DNA of 64,000 nucleotides, from the sequence record MW822008.1; one strand, 5' to 3'. Of this stretch, positions 1 to 51,413 are shown piece by piece; positions within the stretch are counted from its first letter, which is position 1, and each line of letters starts with the position of its first letter. This DNA is from Escherichia phage BF17. The translations under genes were made by a program, and so were the position numbers. Under the pieces are notes generated by a model. It saw only the letters and a program-made list of their open reading frames with translations, was not told the origin of the DNA and made no database searches.

Positions 1-124
1 GCGATGTGACTGTTCCATTACGAACACCGTGGAACGGCTACTTTGAAACGCTTCATAATGCACGAGTTGTCGCTGTTGATAACCCTGAACAAATCGATTT
101 CGATTCATTGGACTGGAAAAAACT

Positions 125-1855: not shown

Positions 1856-2688
1856 TTATGTCATTGGAAAAAGTAATTATTTCTGAATTCCGAAAGTACA
1901 TCATTGATTGTGATAGAGATATACAGCGTAAGTTCAATGAGTATCTTGACAAATATCCATATTTGATGTTTAATCCATTTGAAACTCAATCCGATGTTAA
2001 TCTTGGATTTTACATTGGGTTTACACAACGAATTCTACAACAATATGAGATGAAACAGCCAGAGGTTTGGGTAGAAACTGATTCGAATGAGACGAATGTT
2101 TTTTATCTGTACTCTTATTATGCTGAAATTGTTAGTTCAATGACGCTAGAAGGGTATCTATTCGTCAAAACATCTGATATTGAAAAAATATACATAGAAC
2201 CTGTATCTTTGGATATGGTTGCCCAGCTTCCAACAGTCCAATATTTGGATGCAAATGAGTTGACATATTCGGTGTTTGAGTACCTTAACCGAGACGATTT
2301 AACTCAAGAAATTGAGAATATGGTTTCAAAATATACCACAACTCTTATATCTAATGGTTCACTTAGAATAGAACTGATTTACGACGATACTAGTACTAAT
2401 GCAGTACGAGGAACTCGAATTGGAAAAGTTACTATACGTGTTGTCCACAATGATGTAGTACTTGGTTATATTTCGAAACGTGGTCATGACTTGTGTTTGA
2501 TTAACACATATGTTATTGAACGAAAAGAATGGAACGATTTAATGCAAAAAATCGTAGACGGAAGTGGAATTCGTGATATAATGTGTAATGAGGTAGTGAC
2601 GATGAATCCTGACATTGACTGTGATGTATATTTCCCAGTTCCTGGATTTACTCTACGTAATTTTGGTACATTAAAGGGTACAAAATGA
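1852..2688 (+). CDS. hypothetical protein
   Basis: 278-aa ORF, ATGA overlap with upstream gene. Confidence 0.7.
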   Translation: MIMSLEKVIISEFRKYIIDCDRDIQRKFNEYLDKYPYLMFNPFETQSDVNLGFYIGFTQRILQQYEMKQPEVWVETDSNETNVFYLYSYYAEIVSSMTLEGYLFVKTSDIEKIYIEPVSLDMVAQLPTVQYLDANELTYSVFEYLNRDDLTQEIENMVSKYTTTLISNGSLRIELIYDDTSTNAVRGTRIGKVTIRVVHNDVVLGYISKRGHDLCLINTYVIERKEWNDLMQKIVDGSGIRDIMCNEVVTMNPDIDCDVYFPVPGFTLRNFGTLKGTK

Positions 2689-2975
2689 AAATTTTAGAAG
2701 TCTTACTTGAAAAGGATGCATCCGGCACTCTTTATGTTGGTAATGAGTTCAGTCCTGATCCAATTGATATGATGCAGCGTATTCAAACACTGACCCAATC
2801 AATTTCAGTTAAACAACCTTTCCTAAAAGAATTGGAAATTCACTGCGATAAAGATATGGAACAACATGATAATGTTATTTCTGATATCAAAAGTCTATTG
2901 ACAAAGAATGGATATGTGGAGTATAATCCTTCTATCGTAATCGTTATCCCTGACTTTATGAAAGGAACATTGTAA
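2685..2975 (+). CDS. hypothetical protein
   Basis: 96-aa ORF, ATGA overlap. Confidence 0.6.
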   Translation: MKILEVLLEKDASGTLYVGNEFSPDPIDMMQRIQTLTQSISVKQPFLKELEIHCDKDMEQHDNVISDIKSLLTKNGYVEYNPSIVIVIPDFMKGTL

Positions 2976-3244
2976 TGACTAAAGAAGAAATGAAATCTCG
3001 CCTAAGCGAACTTAAGAAAGAACGAAAACTAGTCCGTTTGGACTGGGACATTCTTAACAAAAAAGATGAGCAATCATATGCTAACTGGAGTTCCGATAAA
3101 GTTCGCAATGACCGTTCCAAAGAAGACGCTAAACAGTTTATGGCATTGACCAAACGTTTATCTTCACTGAATAGTGAAATTACAGGTCTTCAAAAGGAAA
3201 TTATTTCAATTCTTCAAGTGGAGATCAACTCACTGTATGAATAA
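2975..3244 (+). CDS. hypothetical protein (K/E-rich helical)
   Basis: 89-aa ORF, start overlaps upstream stop. Confidence 0.6.
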   Translation: MTKEEMKSRLSELKKERKLVRLDWDILNKKDEQSYANWSSDKVRNDRSKEDAKQFMALTKRLSSLNSEITGLQKEIISILQVEINSLYE

Positions 3245-42657: not shown

Positions 42658-43029
42658 ATGAATATAGATTTGAAAGGTGCAACACGAACTGTCATACTCA
42701 TTGGGGAATATGCTATCAAGATTCCAACCTTTAAAAGTTGGAAGCTATTCTTAACAGGGATGATAGCTAACCTCAATGAACGTTCGTGGATGCAGTACTC
42801 CAAGCGTAGTAATAGTGGTATCTGCCCTACGTTGTGGTCATCATGTACTGGACTAGTAACTGTACAGAAACGTTGTAAGCCAGTGCAACATAGGGGTTTA
42901 TTTTGGCTGGAGTTGTGTGCTTTAGCATTGAATTCAGAGTTAAGTGCTGACTTCTTTTATTCAGATGCGAAGCCAGAAAACTTTGGGTATCTGTGTGGTA
43001 AGTTGGTTAAACTTGATTATGGAGATTAA
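42658..43029 (+). CDS. hypothetical protein with protein-kinase-like catalytic motifs
   Basis: AIK near N-terminus, then DAKPENFG (HRDLKPEN-like) and LDYGD (DFG-like) with kinase-like spacing; only 123 aa. Confidence 0.45.
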   Translation: MNIDLKGATRTVILIGEYAIKIPTFKSWKLFLTGMIANLNERSWMQYSKRSNSGICPTLWSSCTGLVTVQKRCKPVQHRGLFWLELCALALNSELSADFFYSDAKPENFGYLCGKLVKLDYGD

Positions 43030-43030
43030 T

Positions 43031-43303
43031 ATGTACGCACTGTATAATAAAGAAAAGAAACGATTTGCTAAGGTTGAAATTTCGATTGATACATTTGACA
43101 TGTTGGAGTACTGTATTGTAACGGACTTATATGCTAACTTGTATTACGTTCTTGATGACGTATCAGTACTGCAACGATTGCTTGAGAATTCCAAAAGTCA
43201 ATGCCAGGGCATCCATGATGGTTCATCTTATGAAACACCTGAGTGTTCCTACGGCTATCTGGACGGGTATGAGATTGTGAAGTTGGGTATTGTTGGATGC
43301 TGA
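43031..43303 (+). CDS. hypothetical protein
   Basis: ORF track 42944-43303 trimmed to ATG 43031 after GGAG. Confidence 0.5.
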   Translation: MYALYNKEKKRFAKVEISIDTFDMLEYCIVTDLYANLYYVLDDVSVLQRLLENSKSQCQGIHDGSSYETPECSYGYLDGYEIVKLGIVGC

Positions 43304-43307
43304 AACA

Positions 43308-43577
43308 ATGACCAATGATGAATTCATGGAATTTATAAAAAATATACAAAGTTCAAAAACTGGAGAAGAAAAAGAAACATATAAATTTAAAAGTTCAATA
43401 ATACTTATGAAAATGAAATTGATTTCTCATACTTTTAATGAGAAGTATGATTTTATCTTTGTGAACAGTGACTACAATGATTTAGTTTATAATATAAATG
43501 TTTTGTGGGAAGAAGAACTACAAAGCAAAATACATACAGTACGAAAACCATTAAAAAATCCTTTCAAAACGGGTTGA
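43308..43577 (+). CDS. hypothetical protein
   Basis: ORF track 43290-43577 trimmed to internal ATG. Confidence 0.45.
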   Translation: MTNDEFMEFIKNIQSSKTGEEKETYKFKSSIILMKMKLISHTFNEKYDFIFVNSDYNDLVYNINVLWEEELQSKIHTVRKPLKNPFKTG

Positions 43578-43603
43578 CTTCGGTCAGCCCTTTTTGCTAT
43601 AAT
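43571..43603 (+). promoter_or_regulatory. terminator hairpin with embedded -35 (TTGACT) and downstream -10 TATAAT
   Basis: GGGTTGACTTCGGTCAGCCCTTTTTGCTATAATCATTTCATCAA consensus copy. Confidence 0.7.
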
Positions 43604-43631
43604 CATTTCATCAAGACGAGAGGATGAATAC

Positions 43632-44147
43632 ATGACACGCATTAACTTAGTACACGTTAAAGAACTTGCTGACCAACATCTGATGGCTGAATATCGTGAA
43701 CTCCCACGTGTGTTTGGTGCTGTACAAAAACATGTTCAAGCACGTAAGCGAGTCCGTGATTTCAAAATTAACAGTACTTACCTGTTAGGTTCAGGTCATG
43801 TAACATTCTTCTACAACAAGTTATTGTACTTACAGAAGCGTCATATTGATATTGTTAACGAATGTTTGCGTCGTGGTATGAAGATTCAAAACACTGAAGT
43901 AAACGACATTAGCGGATTCCCTGCTGAGTTTTGTAATGACTACGTACCATCGGAGTCAGAGATTAAAATGTCTCGTGAGCGTTTGATTGAGAAGATACAG
44001 ATGAAGCCTATGTGGTATAAATTTACTGACGTTGAACGCCCACAGTACGTTAAAGATATGCAGGACGTAAGTGGTGATATAGAATCTAGTACTGATATGT
44101 TCGACGAAATTGAAGAACAAATCAAAGATGAAATGAATAATTATTAA
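43632..44147 (+). CDS. denV: pyrimidine dimer DNA glycosylase / endonuclease V
   Basis: N-terminus [31 protein letters not shown]...RVRDFKI...[10 protein letters not shown] closely matches T4 endonuclease V as I recall it, including Thr2 and Glu23. Confidence 0.9.
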
Positions 44148-44153
44148 AGGAAA

Positions 44154-44186
44154 GGGTTGACTTCGGTCAGCCCTTTTTGCTATAAT
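44154..44186 (+). promoter_or_regulatory. terminator hairpin with embedded -35 and downstream -10
   Basis: Consensus copy of the GGGTTGACTTCGGTCAGCCC cassette. Confidence 0.7.
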
Positions 44187-44212
44187 CATTTTATCAACTT
44201 AAGAGGTAACAC

Positions 44213-44455
44213 ATGAAACTATCTTTTATACGATTAGCAGAATTCTTCGGTACTGATATCATTACTTTACAACAAATTGCAGACAATACTTCATTAAGTA
44301 CACAAGAAGTACTTGACTTAGATGTAATTCAGTGCGATAATACGTCCATCGATTACAAAGAAGGTCTTGTCGAAAAAGATAAGATTCAGGCTAAGATTAA
44401 TGGTGCTGGACGGGTTCAGTACTGGAAAGGAGTTTTAAGTAATGTTAATTTATGA
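44213..44455 (+). CDS. hypothetical protein
   Basis: 80-aa ORF, AGAGG RBS. Confidence 0.55.
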   Translation: MKLSFIRLAEFFGTDIITLQQIADNTSLSTQEVLDLDVIQCDNTSIDYKEGLVEKDKIQAKINGAGRVQYWKGVLSNVNL

Positions 44456-45857
44456 CGAGCTTGGTGTTGGATACCATTTTACCGATGTTGTGCAATTGGA
44501 GGGTGAATATGTACGCGACGCACGAGAAGACACACCACTTGATAAAATAAAAACACTTAATTCACTAATAATAAAAAATATAATACACATTGAATTATTA
44601 CAAGGATTTGTCGTTGATGGCATAGATGAGTATAATAAAAAAAGATATTCTAAAAAATTTCGACAACCAAAATGTAATTTGAAAATAGCATTTTGGTATG
44701 ATGGTTTATTGTTCATTCAAGGTTATAAACAATTTCTTTCCAACTTAAGTTCAGGAAACTATTGTCCGGGTGAAAAAATATATAATTTAGAAAAAACCAT
44801 TTTATCTGCAAAAAATAAACTATCCGGTGGGTGTAGTATAATAACTGGGAATGGTGAGTGGCTGGGGAGAACAAATACTAAACTTTATGCACTCTGCACG
44901 AAAACCAATAAACCTTGGGAATTCACCATCGGTACACAATATTCTCAGAATTGTCCTGACTGTAAAAAAAGCAAAAAAACTAATAAAGACTTAGATGTGT
45001 TTTTTGAACAACAATGTATAAAATTAAATGCAAAATTTATTGGTATTTTCATGTATAATGGTGTAGATAATAGTATTGTCAAATCGGTATGTAATTGTTG
45101 TGGTAATGAACGTATGGATTATGGAATAACGTTTCGTGCGGGCAGTAGAAAAAGTTTATGCCCACTTGAATCAAGCAGAGTAGAAAAAATAAAAAAATCC
45201 CAATACTTACAAAATGAAGTTTTGGAAGAAAAAATAAAAACTGCAATGAAAATCCATAATATAAGATTTGATGATTCTAACAAATTTGAACCTGAGAAAT
45301 ACGCAAATGTCAAAACTACTATTATAAATTATATTGATTCGAGTGGAACCCCTGGTAGTACATGTCTTTCAAATTTGATTTATAATACAGACAAACGAAG
45401 TATTGGTTCAAAAAACATGACTAATGGTGGTGAGTTGTATACAAATTCATTTGGAAATATGTACAAACTAGGTCACACGACAAAAACAAGTCGTAGGATA
45501 TACGAACAAAATTTATCCTTCTCCAAAAAAAATATATTATGGAAAAATGAACTAATTTTAAAGTTTCCTGGTGAAAATGGGTATGGTCGAGCGATTTATT
45601 TTGAAAAAACAATTTTAGATTATGTAAATAATATAATTGATTGGGTGAAAAACGTTCAAAAAACACCAATATTCGCCCGTGGTTGTGTTGACGAAGGTGA
45701 TGGACATACTGAAACATTTTTAAAGATATATGAATCATATTTTAGATATAAATTGAATGAATTGTACTTGACATATAAAGATGAATGGGATATAATTATT
45801 TTCAAAGATGAAAAGAATTTTATTTCTAATACAAGAGATACTAAAAATGACCAATGA
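44442..45857 (+). CDS. hypothetical Cys-rich protein in AT-rich island
   Basis: 471-aa ORF; visibly lower GC than flanks; CPDC / CNCC motifs. Confidence 0.65.
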   Translation: MLIYDELGVGYHFTDVVQLEGEYVRDAREDTPLDKIKTLNSLIIKNIIHIELLQGFVVDGIDEYNKKRYSKKFRQPKCNLKIAFWYDGLLFIQGYKQFLSNLSSGNYCPGEKIYNLEKTILSAKNKLSGGCSIITGNGEWLGRTNTKLYALCTKTNKPWEFTIGTQYSQNCPDCKKSKKTNKDLDVFFEQQCIKLNAKFIGIFMYNGVDNSIVKSVCNCCGNERMDYGITFRAGSRKSLCPLESSRVEKIKKSQYLQNEVLEEKIKTAMKIHNIRFDDSNKFEPEKYANVKTTIINYIDSSGTPGSTCLSNLIYNTDKRSIGSKNMTNGGELYTNSFGNMYKLGHTTKTSRRIYEQNLSFSKKNILWKNELILKFPGENGYGRAIYFEKTILDYVNNIIDWVKNVQKTPIFARGCVDEGDGHTETFLKIYESYFRYKLNELYLTYKDEWDIIIFKDEKNFISNTRDTKNDQ

Positions 45858-46905
45858 ACAAATTATTGATATTTTAAACAAACTTGGATATGATGAAATA
45901 ACAATTAATGTGGATAAATGTACATATGATGTATTTCATCCTAAAAGAAAAATAATTTATACTGGTATGGATTTAAATAAGATCAACTTTAATACAAAAG
46001 CAATAAAATTTCCACCGTTGGATTATAACACAATAAAATTAAGTTGTGAGAATATTTTCAAAGATAGTGAATGTAAATTTTGTTATTTGGAATATAATGA
46101 AAACAAACCAAATGACACAAAAGTTTTTTATTGTGCACCTAAAAGAAAAAAACCAACCAGTATATATTATAGACATTTGGTGAGTGGTGGTATTCGTATT
46201 AATGTTGAATGGGATATTGAAGACATCTATGATAATGTCTTGATTAAAATAAAAGATATGGATGGTTTTGATATTGATCATGTTGAATATAATGAAAAAG
46301 AAACTTCAAAAACTATAATTCATTTTAAACACCCAAATAGATTATTAACAGTTAAAAATGAATTTAGATATATAATGAGAGATAATTGGTCATTAAAAGA
46401 ACCGCAGATTTCATTAGACGAAATAAATGAGATTGGTAAGAAATTTTCAAAAGAACATCCAAAATATAAGTATCTTGGATGTAAAAGATTCAAAGGTTCA
46501 AAATCGATATTATCGTTTGTTAAAATCGATAATGGAAAAATTTGGAATCCATCATATGAATCAATAGTTTATAGTAATATTAACAGTGATGTTGGTGGAT
46601 ATATTGCAAATGATATAAAAAATTTATATATATTTAAAACTGATTCATTTGTTGGAACATTTATATGCAATGAAACAAAATTTAACTTTCATAAAAATGA
46701 AAGGGAGTTTTGGTTGGATGATGGGGAGATTGAGATAATTGGACAATTCAATGAACGATATTCTTTTTTAAAAGGTATTGTAGATACAGTTAATAGTGAA
46801 ATAGAAATAGATCATGATTTAGATATTGTTGGATATACGTGTATTAGGAAAATACATAATATTGAATATATACAACAACGTTGTTATGATTTATTCAATT
46901 TATAA
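45847..46905 (+). CDS. hypothetical protein in AT-rich island
   Basis: ORF track 45808-46905 trimmed to ATG 45847; AT-rich, K/N/I-rich. Confidence 0.6.
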   Translation: MTNEQIIDILNKLGYDEITINVDKCTYDVFHPKRKIIYTGMDLNKINFNTKAIKFPPLDYNTIKLSCENIFKDSECKFCYLEYNENKPNDTKVFYCAPKRKKPTSIYYRHLVSGGIRINVEWDIEDIYDNVLIKIKDMDGFDIDHVEYNEKETSKTIIHFKHPNRLLTVKNEFRYIMRDNWSLKEPQISLDEINEIGKKFSKEHPKYKYLGCKRFKGSKSILSFVKIDNGKIWNPSYESIVYSNINSDVGGYIANDIKNLYIFKTDSFVGTFICNETKFNFHKNEREFWLDDGEIEIIGQFNERYSFLKGIVDTVNSEIEIDHDLDIVGYTCIRKIHNIEYIQQRCYDLFNL

Positions 46906-46913
46906 CAAAAAAA

Positions 46914-46946
46914 GGGTTGACTTCGGTCAGCCCTTTTTGCTATAAT
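46914..46946 (+). promoter_or_regulatory. terminator hairpin with embedded -35 and downstream -10
   Basis: Consensus copy of the cassette. Confidence 0.7.
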
Positions 46947-46974
46947 TATTTCATCAACTGATGAGGATAACGAA

Positions 46975-47745
46975 ATGACCAGAGAAGCACGTAGCATTCA
47001 AATTCAGAAAAACTTCAACTCCATGATGGTTGCTCTTGAGTGTTTGCTCGACGATAACAGTACTGTAAAAAGTATGGTTGTCAGCGGTGCACCTGGTGTT
47101 GGTAAGACTTACACCCTGTCACAACGCCTCCAGAAAGCTCATGACGCAGCAGAATGGAACGTAGCCACTATCAGTGGTAAAATGACTACTCTTGCTCTGT
47201 ACGAAGTTCTGTACAAGAATCGTCATAGCACCAACGTATTAGTACTGGATGATATGGACAGCATCTTTGATTCAGAAGACGGTATGAACCTGCTCAAAGC
47301 AGTACTGGACAGCGGTAAACGTACTGTGTCTTACATGACTAGCTCTAAGTACTTAACTACCAACGGTATCCCTAACAGCTTTGATTTTAACGGTCGTATC
47401 GTATTCATTACTAACAAAGATTTAGCACTGAATGCTAAAGCTAAAACCAAAATGTCTGCTCACTATGCTGCTCTTATGTCTCGCTCTGTGTATGTTGACT
47501 TACAGATCCAGACTAAAAGCGATATCATGATTCACATTGAAAACGTAATGAACAAGACCAATATCCTGTCAACTAAAGGTGTTAATAGTAATGGTAGCAA
47601 AGCAATCCTGAATTGGATGCTGAAACATGAAGATGCACTTCGTGCTCCTTCACTGCGTATGCCTCTGTTGATTTCAGCAGTATACAACAACAACCCGTAT
47701 GATTGGGAAGAGCAGTGCGAAAACTTGTTCCTTGAGAAAATTTAA
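46975..47745 (+). CDS. P-loop NTPase (AAA-like ATPase)
   Basis: Walker A GAPGVGKT and Walker B-like VLVLDD; 256 aa. Confidence 0.75.
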   Translation: MTREARSIQIQKNFNSMMVALECLLDDNSTVKSMVVSGAPGVGKTYTLSQRLQKAHDAAEWNVATISGKMTTLALYEVLYKNRHSTNVLVLDDMDSIFDSEDGMNLLKAVLDSGKRTVSYMTSSKYLTTNGIPNSFDFNGRIVFITNKDLALNAKAKTKMSAHYAALMSRSVYVDLQIQTKSDIMIHIENVMNKTNILSTKGVNSNGSKAILNWMLKHEDALRAPSLRMPLLISAVYNNNPYDWEEQCENLFLEKI

Positions 47746-47754
47746 TTACATGTA

Positions 47755-47786
47755 TTGACAGTACTACCATAGTGTAGTACTATAAC
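47755..47786 (+). promoter_or_regulatory. promoter-like TTGACA-N17-TACTATAAC
   Basis: Upstream of the 7-gene membrane-protein operon. Confidence 0.45.
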
Positions 47787-47812
47787 TTAATATTCACCAC
47801 CGGAGATACGAT

Positions 47813-48151
47813 ATGCTTGAGTTTTTTAATTCAGATACAATGCTTAGTATTACTTTGATTTATCTGTTTGGTTTTTTCTTTTATCATGCACTAGTTGTAG
47901 TACTATGGTATTTTAAAAAGAAAATCGTTTTCAAACTGTATCCTGATGGAAACATTTCACTACTTCTTTTCACTATTATCCAAGGTATGTTTGCAATTGT
48001 TGGTCTTATCGCACACTTAATTTATTGTGCTAATCCACAGTTGAACTCAATATCACAATATATTGTATTCCTTGGATTACTAATTTGGGTGCTGATATAC
48101 TTGTTTAATCTCATCATCAATGGTAGAGCAAAAATTCGTGGGGACTTCTAA
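47813..48151 (+). CDS. small multi-pass membrane protein, paralog family (cluster B, copy 1)
   Basis: 112-aa; hydrophobic; basic C-terminus RAKIRGDF. Confidence 0.65.
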   Translation: MLEFFNSDTMLSITLIYLFGFFFYHALVVVLWYFKKKIVFKLYPDGNISLLLFTIIQGMFAIVGLIAHLIYCANPQLNSISQYIVFLGLLIWVLIYLFNLIINGRAKIRGDF

Positions 48152-48498
48152 TGTTTGAATCTTATCTTGAGTTTTTAAAGAGTAGTTCTGTTGCACATTC
48201 AATTGCAGGGATTATTCTAACAGGTTATGTAACATTTTGGGTGGTTATGTTTCTAGGATGGTATTTTAAACGACAATTCTATAAGCGTAATGGTGAAGAT
48301 TTTATGAATTCTGTTATTAATCAATCGTTGTTTGCATCAACATTGATAGCATGTATTGTAGCAACACTCACAGGAAAGGTACTGCCAGCATTCTCCGCAG
48401 TTTACGGTACATTGGGTATGATATGTGTAGTTTTTTACTTGACCATTAAACTTTGTTGTGTTATGATTGACCTTCGAAACAAGATACCGGAGGAATGA
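48151..48498 (+). CDS. small multi-pass membrane protein (cluster B, copy 2)
   Basis: C-terminus LRNKIPEE; overlapping start/stop. Confidence 0.65.
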   Translation: MFESYLEFLKSSSVAHSIAGIILTGYVTFWVVMFLGWYFKRQFYKRNGEDFMNSVINQSLFASTLIACIVATLTGKVLPAFSAVYGTLGMICVVFYLTIKLCCVMIDLRNKIPEE

Positions 48499-48833
48499 TG
48501 GAATATTTTTTACACTTACTGCCGTGGTATATGAAAGTTAGTACTATGTACTATATTCTTAGTGCTGGATTCTACTTTCTGATGTGGTTCTTCAAACGAC
48601 CAATTTCAGTATTCATCTCTGATAACATGCTGCAATTAAAATTACACGCATGGTTTTTTATGGCGATGTTTATGCCTATTATTCACTACTCAATGATTAG
48701 TAGAGGGTTCCGTTCCAATGGTGAACCAATTATATTAGTATTCTATTGGGGTTCAACTATTGCATATGTAAGTTTGTTGTTGATCCCAGCCGTTCATAAA
48801 TTACGTGCTAAAGTTCCTGATGCGAGGTACTAA
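48495..48833 (+). CDS. small multi-pass membrane protein (cluster B, copy 3)
   Basis: C-terminus LRAKVPDARY; ATGA overlap. Confidence 0.65.
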   Translation: MMEYFLHLLPWYMKVSTMYYILSAGFYFLMWFFKRPISVFISDNMLQLKLHAWFFMAMFMPIIHYSMISRGFRSNGEPIILVFYWGSTIAYVSLLLIPAVHKLRAKVPDARY

Positions 48834-49147
48834 TGGATATCGTAACATTGATTTACACGCTTTATTCATTCTATTTTATTATGTGTTGGGTTGGATTTTT
48901 ATTTGTATTGAAGATGTTTGATTATGTTGAAAAACAGATAAAAGAATTTTGTATTCCTTTTATTGGGTCAACCATAATTAGTATTACTTGTTTGTATTAT
49001 TTGGTATGTGATCCACCTGTTAATACAGCAATGATTGACTTCATGTTATTACCAACAACAGTTATTTTTTTATGTAGTCTGATGCCACCGATTAGTCGTG
49101 GGCTAACCGAATTTAGACGCAATCAAAAGCGTAAACGAGGGATGTGA
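48833..49147 (+). CDS. small multi-pass membrane protein (cluster B, copy 4)
   Basis: C-terminus RRNQKRKRGM. Confidence 0.65.
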   Translation: MDIVTLIYTLYSFYFIMCWVGFLFVLKMFDYVEKQIKEFCIPFIGSTIISITCLYYLVCDPPVNTAMIDFMLLPTTVIFLCSLMPPISRGLTEFRRNQKRKRGM

Positions 49148-49515
49148 TGGAAATTGCACTTATTATATTAACTGCTATGTTGTTTATTAGTACAATTGTT
49201 ATTATTGGCAAGTTCTTCTGTGTATCCTTCTTGGAAACCGTATACGATGAAATTGCTGATGATTATGAATTACATGCGGGATTTTTTACTACGTATTGGA
49301 TTAGTTTATTACTACTTATCACTGTATGGATTTTACATATATTCAAATGGGGTATGGTAGATGGTGATCCAGTACTGGCAATTATCTGTGTAGTGTTTGG
49401 TCTACTCGGTGGTGCTGTCCATAATCTGATGGTAATTTGGCAAACCGTACAATATGTATTAGTTCCACATTTTCAGAGAATGCACCAAAGCATCAAATAC
49501 CGCAAACGAGGATAA
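49144..49515 (+). CDS. small multi-pass membrane protein (cluster B, copy 5)
   Basis: C-terminus SIKYRKRG. Confidence 0.65.
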   Translation: MMEIALIILTAMLFISTIVIIGKFFCVSFLETVYDEIADDYELHAGFFTTYWISLLLLITVWILHIFKWGMVDGDPVLAIICVVFGLLGGAVHNLMVIWQTVQYVLVPHFQRMHQSIKYRKRG

Positions 49516-49516
49516 C

Positions 49517-49879
49517 ATGAATAATATTGAATTATCTTTTATTGGTCAATTAATGGTAATGGCGTATACATTTATCTTCTCACTGAATGCATTCGTGTGC
49601 ATTGGGAAGTACTTCCATAAGCGACCATTATCAAATATATATGATGTAATACAAAGGAGATATAGTCCAGCATATACTGTGTTGAGTACAGCATTCAATT
49701 TTGGTTTTATTCTAATGCTGGTTGCATTATTAACATCGAGTTCGAATTTTATAACATTTGGTATTATGGTATGTTCACTAACACTGTGTGTGGTTATTCT
49801 CTGTGCATCAGTTGAGTTGATGGCGTGGATGTATAATAAGATTTCCGAAATCCATGAGCGTTTAGGTAAGAGGAACTAA
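49517..49879 (+). CDS. small multi-pass membrane protein (cluster B, copy 6)
   Basis: C-terminus HERLGKRN. Confidence 0.65.
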   Translation: MNNIELSFIGQLMVMAYTFIFSLNAFVCIGKYFHKRPLSNIYDVIQRRYSPAYTVLSTAFNFGFILMLVALLTSSSNFITFGIMVCSLTLCVVILCASVELMAWMYNKISEIHERLGKRN

Positions 49880-49880
49880 A

Positions 49881-50252
49881 ATGAGTTATCGTGAAATATT
49901 TTCGATCATTACTATTATTGTGTTTAGTTTAGGTTCTTTGATTTGGTTATTGTATTACTTCTGTGTAACCCCAGTATATAATATGCTAAATTCAGTTCGC
50001 TCTGATGTTGGTATTGTTTCTTTTATTATCTTCATGGCATATTATATGCTAAGTATCACAGGTTTGGTTTTGGTTGTTATCTTTGACCTTGGACCGAATC
50101 AAGATGGTATGGAGATGTGGGAATTGATAACGATGTTTGCATGTATGATACCTGCATTTGGTGTATGTGCTGGTGTATTTTATGGGTTGTGTAAAGGTGT
50201 AAACTACTTAAAAAATATCCACAATACTATTCGTAAAAAACGTATGTTGTAA
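49881..50252 (+). CDS. small multi-pass membrane protein (cluster B, copy 7)
   Basis: C-terminus IRKKRML. Confidence 0.65.
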   Translation: MSYREIFSIITIIVFSLGSLIWLLYYFCVTPVYNMLNSVRSDVGIVSFIIFMAYYMLSITGLVLVVIFDLGPNQDGMEMWELITMFACMIPAFGVCAGVFYGLCKGVNYLKNIHNTIRKKRML

Positions 50253-50258
50253 TAAAAA

Positions 50259-50283
50259 ATCCAGTACTATAATAGTACTGGAT
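50259..50283. terminator. bidirectional terminator between convergent blocks
   Basis: ATCCAGTACT-ATAAT-AGTACTGGAT palindrome with A/T runs on both sides. Confidence 0.65.
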
Positions 50284-50288
50284 TAATT

Positions 50289-51413
50289 TTAATTATCTAA
50301 GCCACCAATTACACTGAACAGTGTGGTAACGTCTGAACTATTATCTATGTAAGTTCTTCTACCAACATAATATAGTTGTCCTTTTGCTTGAATAAAAGTT
50401 ACGGTCCCTGTATTGAATGTTATAATATCATTGTATGTAATGTCAGGTGGTAGTGCTGCTGATAACGCAGTAACTTTACTTAATGCAGCACTAGTACTAC
50501 CATTTATACCAGCAGCAATACTACCAGTACCATAGAACTTATTATCTTTACCAATGAATACGTTGGCTGATGCTTGTGTAGCTGATGTTATTGCCTTACC
50601 AATTTGGAATGCGGTTCCTATGGTGTATGGTGTGCTCCTGGCTGCGTCTATGCTTTGTGTATATCCATCCCCTAGCTGACCATTAACTTTGTCACCACAT
50701 GAGTATAAAGTACCATTGAGGCTGTATATGATCCCACGGTTAGAGAAGCTAACAGCTTCTGCATTAGTCCATACTGGAGCGGTGTATGAGTTTACACGAC
50801 TAGCAGTAGTTCCTAGTCCTAGTATACCATATGTGTTATCACCACATCCAAACCATTGTCCAGTACTGTTTTGATAGAACACTGAACGTTCTGTTGATTC
50901 CATGCGTACAGCATCCACAGCACCACTTTTAACGAACGAAGTGGATGAGGATGTAGTACCAGTACCCAATGCACCATAAGTGTTTGTACCAATCGCATAG
51001 ATTGATCCTAGTGGTGTCATCACACGTATACAGTTATATCCCAATTGAACTTTACATTCAAATAGGTTGTCCCATATTTCAGGAACAGCAGAAAATAAAT
51101 TTGTAATTTCGAACCATGATGTTGTCGAACCAATTAATCCTATACTGCTTTTGTTTCCTAAAATGAAAACAGTTTTGTCCTTCTTAATTATCCATGATGA
51201 TAGGAAACCTATCTCACAGCTATGAACATTTGATTCTATTTGGGTAATATAATACTTAACTGTGTTATCACCCATGAATGCCGCAGCACCGGATGCAAAA
51301 AGGTTTCCAGTTTGTTTATTTAAAATGTAGTTATTGTTTCCATATACACTAACATCATAAGAACTTTCTTGTTTTTCGTTCCCATAATCAAATAACAATA
51401 CGAAAGGTAACAT
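50289..51413 (-). CDS. RCC1-like repeat protein, MLPF-leader family member 1
   Basis: 374 aa; MLPFVLLFDYGN leader variant; G-x-N-x-x-G-Q-L-G-x-G repeats (GCGDNTYGILGLG, SCGDKVNGQLGDG); GGAG RBS. Confidence 0.8.
   Translation of the reverse strand: MLPFVLLFDYGNEKQESSYDVSVYGNNNYILNKQTGNLFASGAAAFMGDNTVKYYITQIESNVHSCEIGFLSSWIIKKDKTVFILGNKSSIGLIGSTTSWFEITNLFSAVPEIWDNLFECKVQLGYNCIRVMTPLGSIYAIGTNTYGALGTGTTSSSTSFVKSGAVDAVRMESTERSVFYQNSTGQWFGCGDNTYGILGLGTTASRVNSYTAPVWTNAEAVSFSNRGIIYSLNGTLYSCGDKVNGQLGDGYTQSIDAARSTPYTIGTAFQIGKAITSATQASANVFIGKDNKFYGTGSIAAGINGSTSAALSKVTALSAALPPDITYNDIITFNTGTVTFIQAKGQLYYVGRRTYIDNSSDVTTLFSVIGGLDN

Follow-up and report, generated by a model that had tools for sequence, protein, structure and literature searches.

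An AT-rich ORFan gene pair of Escherichia phage BF17 as the probable occupant of a homing-endonuclease turnover site

Introduction

What kind of DNA is the AT-rich gene pair that lies between denV and an ATPase gene in Escherichia phage BF17 (sequence record MW822008.1)? The region at 44213-46905 resembles that of the 121Q/PBECO4-like jumbo coliphages (Asteriusvirus, about 350 kb), and the two open reading frames (ORFs) in question, here called A and B, follow a small conserved gene, orf80; in public data A is a hypothetical protein of Escherichia phage BF17. We analyzed the pair within a stretch of 64,000 nucleotides (nt), referred to below as the window. A reading made from the letters of the window (the sequence-only reading) had described an AT-rich island between two copies of a terminator-promoter hairpin, and had suggested a horizontally acquired, insulated cargo module that might be a defence or anti-defence pair or a selfish element. 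From a comparison with related phages we hold, with moderate confidence, that the segment at 44446-46905 is the current occupant of a turnover site for selfish homing-endonuclease genes (HEGs) in an Asteriusvirus-type jumbo phage, with A a diverged HEG and B a HEG-family gene without a recognisable nuclease domain.

Results

The denV-ATPase interval in related phages

We mapped the boundaries of the segment by comparing the window with six relatives in local blastn. With 121Q, JP4 and vB_Ec-M-J, homology extended through orf80, stopped at 44430-44446 and restarted at 46902-46911. The variable segment is 44446-46905, and its left edge falls in the last 1-3 codons of orf80; the limits proposed by the sequence-only reading matched this variable DNA almost exactly. 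Both ORFs were also present where they had been placed, with CPDC (amino acids [aa] 171-174) and CNCC (aa 217-220) in A and a length of 352 rather than 353 aa for B.

A megablast comparison of 43000-48500 with phage records gave 58 matches, and only one of them, Escherichia phage Turkey3, covered the A-B segment (100% identity over 2,445 nt). orf80 DNA was found in 27 phage records and A-B DNA in 1 of 50,697. In EC.P1 the site was empty: denV is followed by a single hybrid cassette and then the ATPase gene, without orf80, A or B. Seven relatives carried a different nuclease-family gene in the slot, none with DNA similarity to the island. In five of these the gene started 8-14 nt before the orf80 stop codon, as seen for JP4 (372 aa, annotated 'homing endonuclease'), vB_Ec-M-J (371 aa, 'HNH endonuclease'), PBECO4 gp306 (379 aa, 'endonuclease'), phAPEC6 gp019c (628 aa, 'exonuclease ABC C subunit') and Ecwhy_1 538 (447 aa). 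121Q gp221 (487 aa; three Pfam CapR domains, 2.6e-23) started 43 nt after orf80 and was followed by gp222, and Turkey5 had a 527-aa 'DUF4379' protein in a denV-ATPase interval from which orf80 was absent. Turkey3 itself carried A and B and, on the upstream side of orf80, a 432-aa 'DUF4379' protein in addition. The locus shows a presence/absence polymorphism with an empty site, at a fixed intergenic position, among close relatives. Only Turkey3 has the segment, which the others lack or have replaced, and in this respect the suggestion of a mobile element was supported. No match to the island DNA was found among 5,426 complete E. coli genomes, and a host origin was rejected on this basis.

T5orf172 is a GIY-YIG subfamily found in HEGs with repeated CapR/DUF723/DUF4379-type zinc-finger DNA-binding domains, and unrelated HEGs are known to replace one another at the same locus (Barth et al. 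2023, PMC10448857). By tblastn, gp221 had 342 relatives in phages, among them ICP1 ORF165 and genes that bear the annotation of a putative homing endonuclease; representative relatives had the architecture CapR x3-5 plus T5orf172. A search for related loci starting from 121Q gp221 returned 121Q alone, and the Turkey5 527-aa protein was itself an orphan.

The last 1-3 codons and the stop codon of orf80 overlap the start of whichever nuclease-family gene comes next. The orf80 protein is constant up to ...WKGVLSN and then varies along with the downstream gene, and the ribosome-binding site of A (AAGGAG, 9 nt before the ATG) lies within the orf80 3' end. Between most relatives, the exchange boundary appears from these alignments to be the orf80 3' end and not the hairpin cassette.

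A probable, diverged nuclease domain in gene A

Neither A nor B matched a family in Pfam, PHROG, NCBIfam or PADLOC, and the idea of a defence or anti-defence pair found no footing in these models. A word-seeded search of 5.8 billion proteins with A and B returned identical copies only (BF17, Turkey3 and metagenome contigs), except for a match of B to the Turkey5 slot protein. The same was true of a tblastn search of 50,697 phage genomes, where the match of B to Turkey5 was weak, and a full HMMER search of 1.84 billion representatives with A gave only identical copies. A match of A to the CD3 gamma chain in a PDB sequence search (E 0.014) was judged spurious.

Among other family members, the Pfam T5orf172 model scored alia_102 at 20.1 and phi92 gp222 at 20.2 (gathering threshold 20) and ICP1 ORF165 at 18.0, and did not match gp221. 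From gp221 and five relatives (ICP1 ORF165, phi92 gp222 and alia_102 among the members) we constructed a custom profile for the C-terminal domain. Two further proteins were recognized by this six-member profile, the 432-aa protein of Turkey3 at 65 bits and the 527-aa protein of Turkey5 at 30.6 bits; with both added, the eight-member profile scored the held-out occupants of phAPEC6, Ecwhy and PBECO4 at 100, 70 and 59 bits, respectively. When 656 ORF segments were ranked with the custom nuclease-domain profile, A was the top non-member. An 11-member profile gave A 16.5 bits (E 3.6e-7, Z=1), a score reached by none of 3000 shuffles (maximum 13.0), and a profile of the Asteriusvirus subclade made from three members (gp221, PBECO4 gp306 and the Turkey5 527-aa protein) gave 16.7 bits (E about 3e-7 as a single-sequence test; 0/3000 shuffles, maximum 10.7). 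A two-sequence subclade profile yielded 3.8 bits over the full sequence, which 88 of 3000 shuffles reached; significance was obtained only once PBECO4 gp306 and further members had been added.

The motifs YKLGHTT (aa 341-347), SRRIYEQN (350-357), NLSFSKK, WKN, FEKTIL (387-392) and GDGHTETF (419-426) of A align with the K-x-G-x-T, Arg, helix Glu and DG-x-TET columns of the family. The domain is closest to the subclade of gp221, gp306 and Turkey5, with N-x-S-F-x-K, W-x-N and, after an insertion, GDG-x-TETF in common, whereas pairwise similarity of A to these three proteins is at noise level (at most 11.5 bits by phmmer) and DNA similarity is absent. The profiles and motifs give reasonable support to the assignment of a T5orf172-like nuclease domain to A, and by analogy with GIY-YIG nucleases Glu388 is a candidate catalytic residue. 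For the region preceding this domain, the custom module profile scored aa 144-174 at only 4.3 bits (19/3000 shuffles), in register (TKL..C..W..CPxC), and hhalign aligned aa 168-257 in register with the family modules (P 0.036); a CapR type-1 module profile detected neither A nor B. Zinc (Zn)-ribbon-like DNA-binding modules at the N-terminus of A are plausible.

Homology and expression signals of gene B

B was connected to the family through the Turkey5 slot protein. Residues 65-270 of B matched residues 209-411 of that 527-aa protein at 29-49.7 bits, compared with a shuffle maximum of 9.6, with a further match at an internal repeat (residues 50-198). The nuclease-like domain of the Turkey5 protein (377-524) is homologous to that of gp221 (62 bits); the part matched by B precedes it and is the non-nuclease part, a putative DNA-binding module region. 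B scored only 0.6 bits with the module profile, though it aligned to the module region of the Turkey5 protein, and it has GYTCIRK at the position of the family DGYTET. Given the match to the Turkey5 module part and the lack of nuclease-profile signal at residues 270-352, B is a HEG-family protein with no detectable nuclease domain. Residues 70-109 of B (46054-46173, '...YLEYNENKPNDTKVFYCA...') also gave hundreds of matches to framework 3 of nanobody/VH entries in the PDB (best E 2.9e-6), which we judged to be due to chance because they reflect a resemblance to the 'LQMNSLKPEDTAVYYCA' motif (KPNDTKVFYCA versus KPEDTAVYYCA) that is amplified by the redundancy of the PDB.

A and B overlap by 11 nt, and an alternative in-frame ATG at 45808 would give B a length of 365 aa. 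A sigma-70 promoter of perfect consensus precedes B (Table 1). Since ten such sites (TTGACA-16..18-TATAAT) occur in the window, all on the + strand, versus 0.3 expected, the site at 45768-45796 is likely to be a real early promoter dedicated to B, and it would permit transcription of B alone. Several of the ten sites have the 'GTACTGTATAAT' extended -10 context in common.

A tract of perfect identity with a linked ATPase allele

Comparison of the window with Turkey3 revealed a tract without a single difference (Table 1), which we read as a recent co-conversion tract. The flanks had diverged, with 11 differences in 44187-44389 and 35 in 48118-50456, and downstream of 48118 Turkey3 carries many EC.P1 and vB_Ec-M-J variants. 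Within the ATPase gene, the window differed from EC.P1 at 10 positions and from vB_Ec-M-J at 7 (16 of the 17 differences synonymous), compared with none in Turkey3; because of this pattern, and with the flanks diverged, we conclude that the ATPase allele, which A-B carriers alone share, travels with A-B. A-B was free of differences across four independent sources. For orf80, in contrast, three haplotypes were seen, with 7-14 differences over about 200 nt; zero polymorphism in 2.5 kb of A-B contrasts with ~5% divergence in the 200 nt of orf80 next to it. The 11 metagenome contigs always had the order orf80-A-B-ATPase and contained the third orf80 haplotype. One of them (L018) had EC.P1-type bases at 47226/47232, which indicates a different right-hand endpoint.

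The identity tract, the linked ATPase allele and the at least two endpoint configurations together form a co-conversion signature that fits homing without proving it. The 5' single-nucleotide polymorphisms (SNPs) of the ATPase gene at 46989, 47004, 47052 and 47057 are candidate resistance SNPs, and this gene is a candidate homing target region. The perfect 3.7-kb tract, the linked allele and the variable endpoints suggest that the A-B element is spreading now among Asteriusvirus phages.

Hairpin cassettes at the borders of a three-gene unit

The sequence AAAGGGTTGACTTCGGTCAGCCCTTTTTGCTATAAT occurs nine times in the window, always on the + strand, versus 0 expected. Each copy is a cassette in which a stem (dG -19 kcal/mol, z -5.2) holds the -35 element of a TTGACT-18-TATAAT promoter inside a UUCG-loop hairpin. 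Three copies lie near A-B, before denV (43571), before orf80 (44154) and after B (46914). In the left cassette the -35 TTGACT at 44157 is within the stem and the -10 TATAAT ends at 44186. The left cassette is predicted to drive orf80 and A, and the right cassette to terminate the A-B unit and drive the ATPase gene. The two flanking hairpins of the sequence-only reading are real, but the left copy does not adjoin A, and the unit that they bracket has three genes, orf80, A and B. The proposed insulation is right only in part: the hairpins flank this unit, but the exchange boundary between most relatives is the orf80 3' end. Metagenome contigs that carry A-B tend to end at cassette repeats.

The arrangement has the features of PeSL, the composite promoter-terminator cassettes of T4-like phages (PMC2839356, PMC4122927): an early sigma-70 promoter joined to a short terminator stem-loop, with many copies that all point the same way, at indel borders (here EC.P1 versus the window). 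It differs in phage group, in cassette sequence and in having the -35 element inside the stem, and here the cassette bounds only the loss or gain of the whole orf80-HEG unit, not the replacement of one HEG by another. An alternative account is that A and B are non-selfish accessory cargo (for anti-defence, host takeover or exclusion) moved without homing by recombination at the cassettes, as for PeSL, and at orf80. PeSL cassettes mediate such indels in T4-like phages (PMC4122927; PMC2839356), and EC.P1 has its single hybrid copy of the nine-copy repeat exactly where the unit is missing; the left exchange boundary, however, falls mostly in the last orf80 codons. A and B are both ORFans without a family match, as cargo might be, but they match no defence model either, and A bears the nuclease-domain signature of the other occupants while B is homologous to one of them. 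The recent sweep of a beneficial gene could also yield the identity tract. Against the cargo account, the seven alternative occupants are all nuclease-family genes. We consider the cargo account unlikely.

Base composition

The reported AT-richness was confirmed, although it is uneven. The 1-kb bins at 45001-47000 had 26-27% GC compared with a window mean of 34.9%, and in a finer profile the drop grew deeper from about 45550 through 46900. With 24.1% GC and 15.0% GC at third codon positions (GC3), B was the lowest of 120 non-overlapping ORFs (~2.9 standard deviations [SD] below the mean); A was tenth lowest and only in the low tail (29.4% GC, GC3 21.0%, ~1.4 SD below). The reference for these values, genes of at least 100 aa, averaged 34.4% GC (SD 3.6) and 28.1% GC3 (SD 6.0), and the flanking genes had 37.6% (denV) and 41.2% GC (ATPase gene). 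The other ten lowest-GC ORFs of the window had no nuclease match in Pfam, and low GC as a general HEG marker found no support within the window.

The contrast had also been taken as a sign of foreign cargo, and here the relatives spoke against it. Slot occupants had a GC fraction of 0.24-0.34 and a GC3 of 0.14-0.26, compared with 0.376-0.40 GC for denV and 0.39-0.42 for the ATPase gene. Because every alternative occupant is similarly AT-rich, the property is not specific to this island, and it marks a class of element and not a particular foreign donor; low GC would be the usual composition of such selfish genes in this phage group.

Neighbouring genes

Upstream of the slot, denV varies in length, with 171 aa and an acidic tail in the window, 121Q, JP4 and EC.P1, and 144 aa in Turkey5, PBECO4 and phAPEC6; differences from the relatives are concentrated in its 3' end (43979-44092). 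The extra 432-aa gene of Turkey3, of the T5orf172 type, follows denV (Turkey3 locus 1-1995; Turkey5 denV region 2641-3075). A small AT-rich ORF at 43290-43577 (+), 5' of the denV cassette (95 aa from TTG, or 89 aa from an ATG at 43308; GC 25%), had a sub-threshold Pfam colicin/pyocin immunity match (E 0.0047; 17.4 bits versus a cut-off of 21.2). Its position is taken in JP4 and vB_Ec-M-J by a 137-aa gene annotated 'HNH endonuclease' and in EC.P1 by a 137-aa hypothetical gene, and it may be another variable slot.

Directly 3' of the ATPase gene, 47813-50252 (+) holds a tandem run of seven small genes (104-123 aa) that are hydrophobic, membrane-protein-like and probably a paralog array; the relatives have this array as well. 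In the unrelated phi92-like phages alia and phi92, a HEG with CapR x4-5 plus T5orf172 lies directly downstream of an AAA-type ATPase gene. ATPase genes may be a recurrent target neighbourhood of the T5orf172/CapR HEG family, or this may be coincidence.

Table 1. Positions of the genes, domains, expression signals and identity tract in the window
Feature	Position	Strand	Remarks
denV	43632-44147		Upstream of orf80; Pfam Pyr_excise, 9e-15
Left terminator/early-promoter cassette	44151..44210	+	Hairpin GGGTTGAC-TTCG-GTCAGCCC and T-run
orf80	44213-44455	+	80 aa, phrog_34150; conserved anchor gene between left cassette and A
Zero-difference tract, window versus Turkey3	44390..48117	.	3,728 nt
Gene A	44442-45857	+	471 aa; sequence ORFan, only identical copies known
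Candidate Zn-ribbon (CapR/DUF4379-type) module of A	44871..44963	+	aa 144-174, 'TNTKLYALC...W...CPDC'; best candidate, weak evidence
T5orf172-like (GIY-YIG superfamily) domain of A	45450..45800	+	aa 337-453; custom profiles
Perfect sigma-70 consensus promoter	45768..45796	+	TTGACA-17-TATAAT; within A 3' end, 50 nt before ATG of B
Gene B	45847-46905	+	352 aa; lowest GC in window
Right terminator/early-promoter cassette	46911..46970	+	Hairpin 46914-46933, -35 at 46917, -10 ending 46946
AAA-type/P-loop ATPase gene	46975-47745	+	phrog_1250; conserved flank, allele co-inherited with A-B
Cassette copies	23992, 32462, 36056, 36836, 38417, 39099, 43571, 44154, 46914	+	One hairpin/early-promoter repeat
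Perfect sigma-70 sites	1038, 2898, 7164, 7309, 18235, 25728, 26377, 30686, 41550, 45768	+	Consensus scan

Discussion

Of the possibilities raised by the sequence-only reading, a mobile, selfish element agrees best with our data, given the replacement of the segment in relatives, the perfect-identity tract within diverged flanks and the T5orf172-like nuclease domain of A. Most probably, A is an active free-standing HEG of the T5orf172/CapR type that has diverged greatly; its N-terminal Zn-ribbon-like modules would bind DNA and its C-terminal GIY-YIG-superfamily domain, with the family residues kept, would cut it. During mixed infection, A would cleave the allele of a phage without this gene, probably close to where orf80, cassette and ATPase gene meet, and repair on the A-B-bearing genome would transfer A-B to the recipient along with the neighbouring ATPase allele. 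B, as a second HEG-family gene, would be a relic whose nuclease is dead or else a derived protein that binds DNA. The cassettes may serve as expression signals for termination and early transcription and may offer homology for gain or loss of the whole orf80-HEG unit, as in EC.P1, while the orf80 3' end would provide both the ribosome-binding site of A and the left crossover point for HEG-for-HEG replacement.

Several observations weigh against this interpretation. Neither A nor B matched Pfam T5orf172, MUG113, CapR or DUF4379, searched whole or in thirds with E up to 10, and neither reached the E of 0.001 or better for T5orf172 (PF10544) or MUG113 (PF13455) that is used in PMC10448857. The assignment of A rests on small custom profiles that were built after the motifs had been seen; the eight-member profile gave A only 9.1 bits (1/3000 plain and 2/3000 block shuffles reached the full-sequence score), the alignment of A to the domain by hhalign was in the same register but weak (P 0.002, 13% probability), and the Zn-ribbon assignment is likewise weak (P about 0.006-0.04). 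Residues 270-352 of B had no signal in any nuclease-domain profile (3.3 and 1.8 bits, within the shuffle range). AlphaFold2 run without an alignment was unusable (mean pLDDT 30.3 for A and 33.8 for B) and gave no structural confirmation. A recent acquisition or sweep followed by ordinary homologous recombination could mimic the identity tract without a nuclease.

The A-B locus resembles that of the ICP1 gp165-type HEGs (PMC10448857) in that the genes are free-standing between conserved genes, several HEGs may sit side by side, unrelated HEGs turn over at the locus and flanking markers are co-inherited. A has a similar 'beads on a string' layout, in which candidate modules with Cys residues at the N-terminus precede the T5orf172-like domain at the C-terminus. 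A and B are, however, far outside the Pfam models, most of the Zn ligands have disappeared from the A modules or changed place, no nuclease domain can be recognised in B, and homing is in our case deduced from sequence. With 121Q gp221, PBECO4 gp306 and the Turkey5 527-aa protein, A-B has position and low GC in common, and the start of A overlaps orf80 as that of gp306 does.

The seg and mob genes of T4 are free-standing HEGs (GIY-YIG and HNH) that show marker co-conversion. Like these, A-B is intergenic and optional among close relatives, with an asymmetric co-conversion tract into the neighbouring conserved gene; it differs in nuclease subfamily and phage lineage, and its target site is a candidate only.

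A further possibility, to which we assign a small chance, is that B has become a DNA-binding protein of HEG descent, which has an early promoter to itself and moves together with A as the active nuclease. The analogy is with CapR of the Vibrio cholerae PLE, a domesticated T5orf172-family DNA-binding repressor (PMC8096241): B apparently retains HEG-type DNA-binding modules without a nuclease domain, but it has no Pfam CapR match and is encoded by a phage and not by a satellite. If true, B might protect the carrier genome, tune A or silence a gene of a co-infecting competitor, and A-B would be a two-part module of inter-phage competition and not two independent selfish genes.

It is improbable, in our view, that A and B are decaying, non-functional former HEGs that are kept only through recent arrival and are AT-rich from mutational drift. 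Both are extremely diverged from all relatives, yet neither frame is interrupted in its 471 or 352 codons, in DNA of 24-29% GC; with an estimated ~1 stop per 10 codons by chance, the B frame would stay open with a probability around 1e-16. The missing nuclease domain of B and its altered candidate motif (GYTCIRK for DGYTET) would suit decay, and degeneration is a known part of HEG life cycles (PMC13405050), but A retains every family-conserved motif. B has the lowest GC3 in the window and at the same time a promoter of perfect consensus, and the zero polymorphism in four sources, seen with two or more recombination endpoints, speaks for a spread that is still under way.

We give equally little credence to A and B as one two-part system in which B regulates A, confers immunity, acts as specificity partner or, with CapR as the domesticated precedent (PMC8096241), represses a competitor: the genes always occur together with their overlap (11 metagenome contigs, Turkey3 and the window), and B retains no more of a HEG than the module part and is preceded by a promoter of its own, but co-occurrence is expected regardless, since the known copies are all 100% identical and belong to a single recent clone. 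Nothing points to an interaction, and tandem independent HEGs are common, with a third one upstream in Turkey3.

Large phages were already known to have HEG turnover sites and T5orf172-type endonucleases, and our reading of this locus as such a site adds little to the concept. Its value is that of a clean natural example, in which the other occupants of the slot served as stepping stones from two ORFans to their family. It also carries a warning for annotation: AT-rich ORFan pairs in jumbo phages are likelier to be selfish nucleases than defence cargo.

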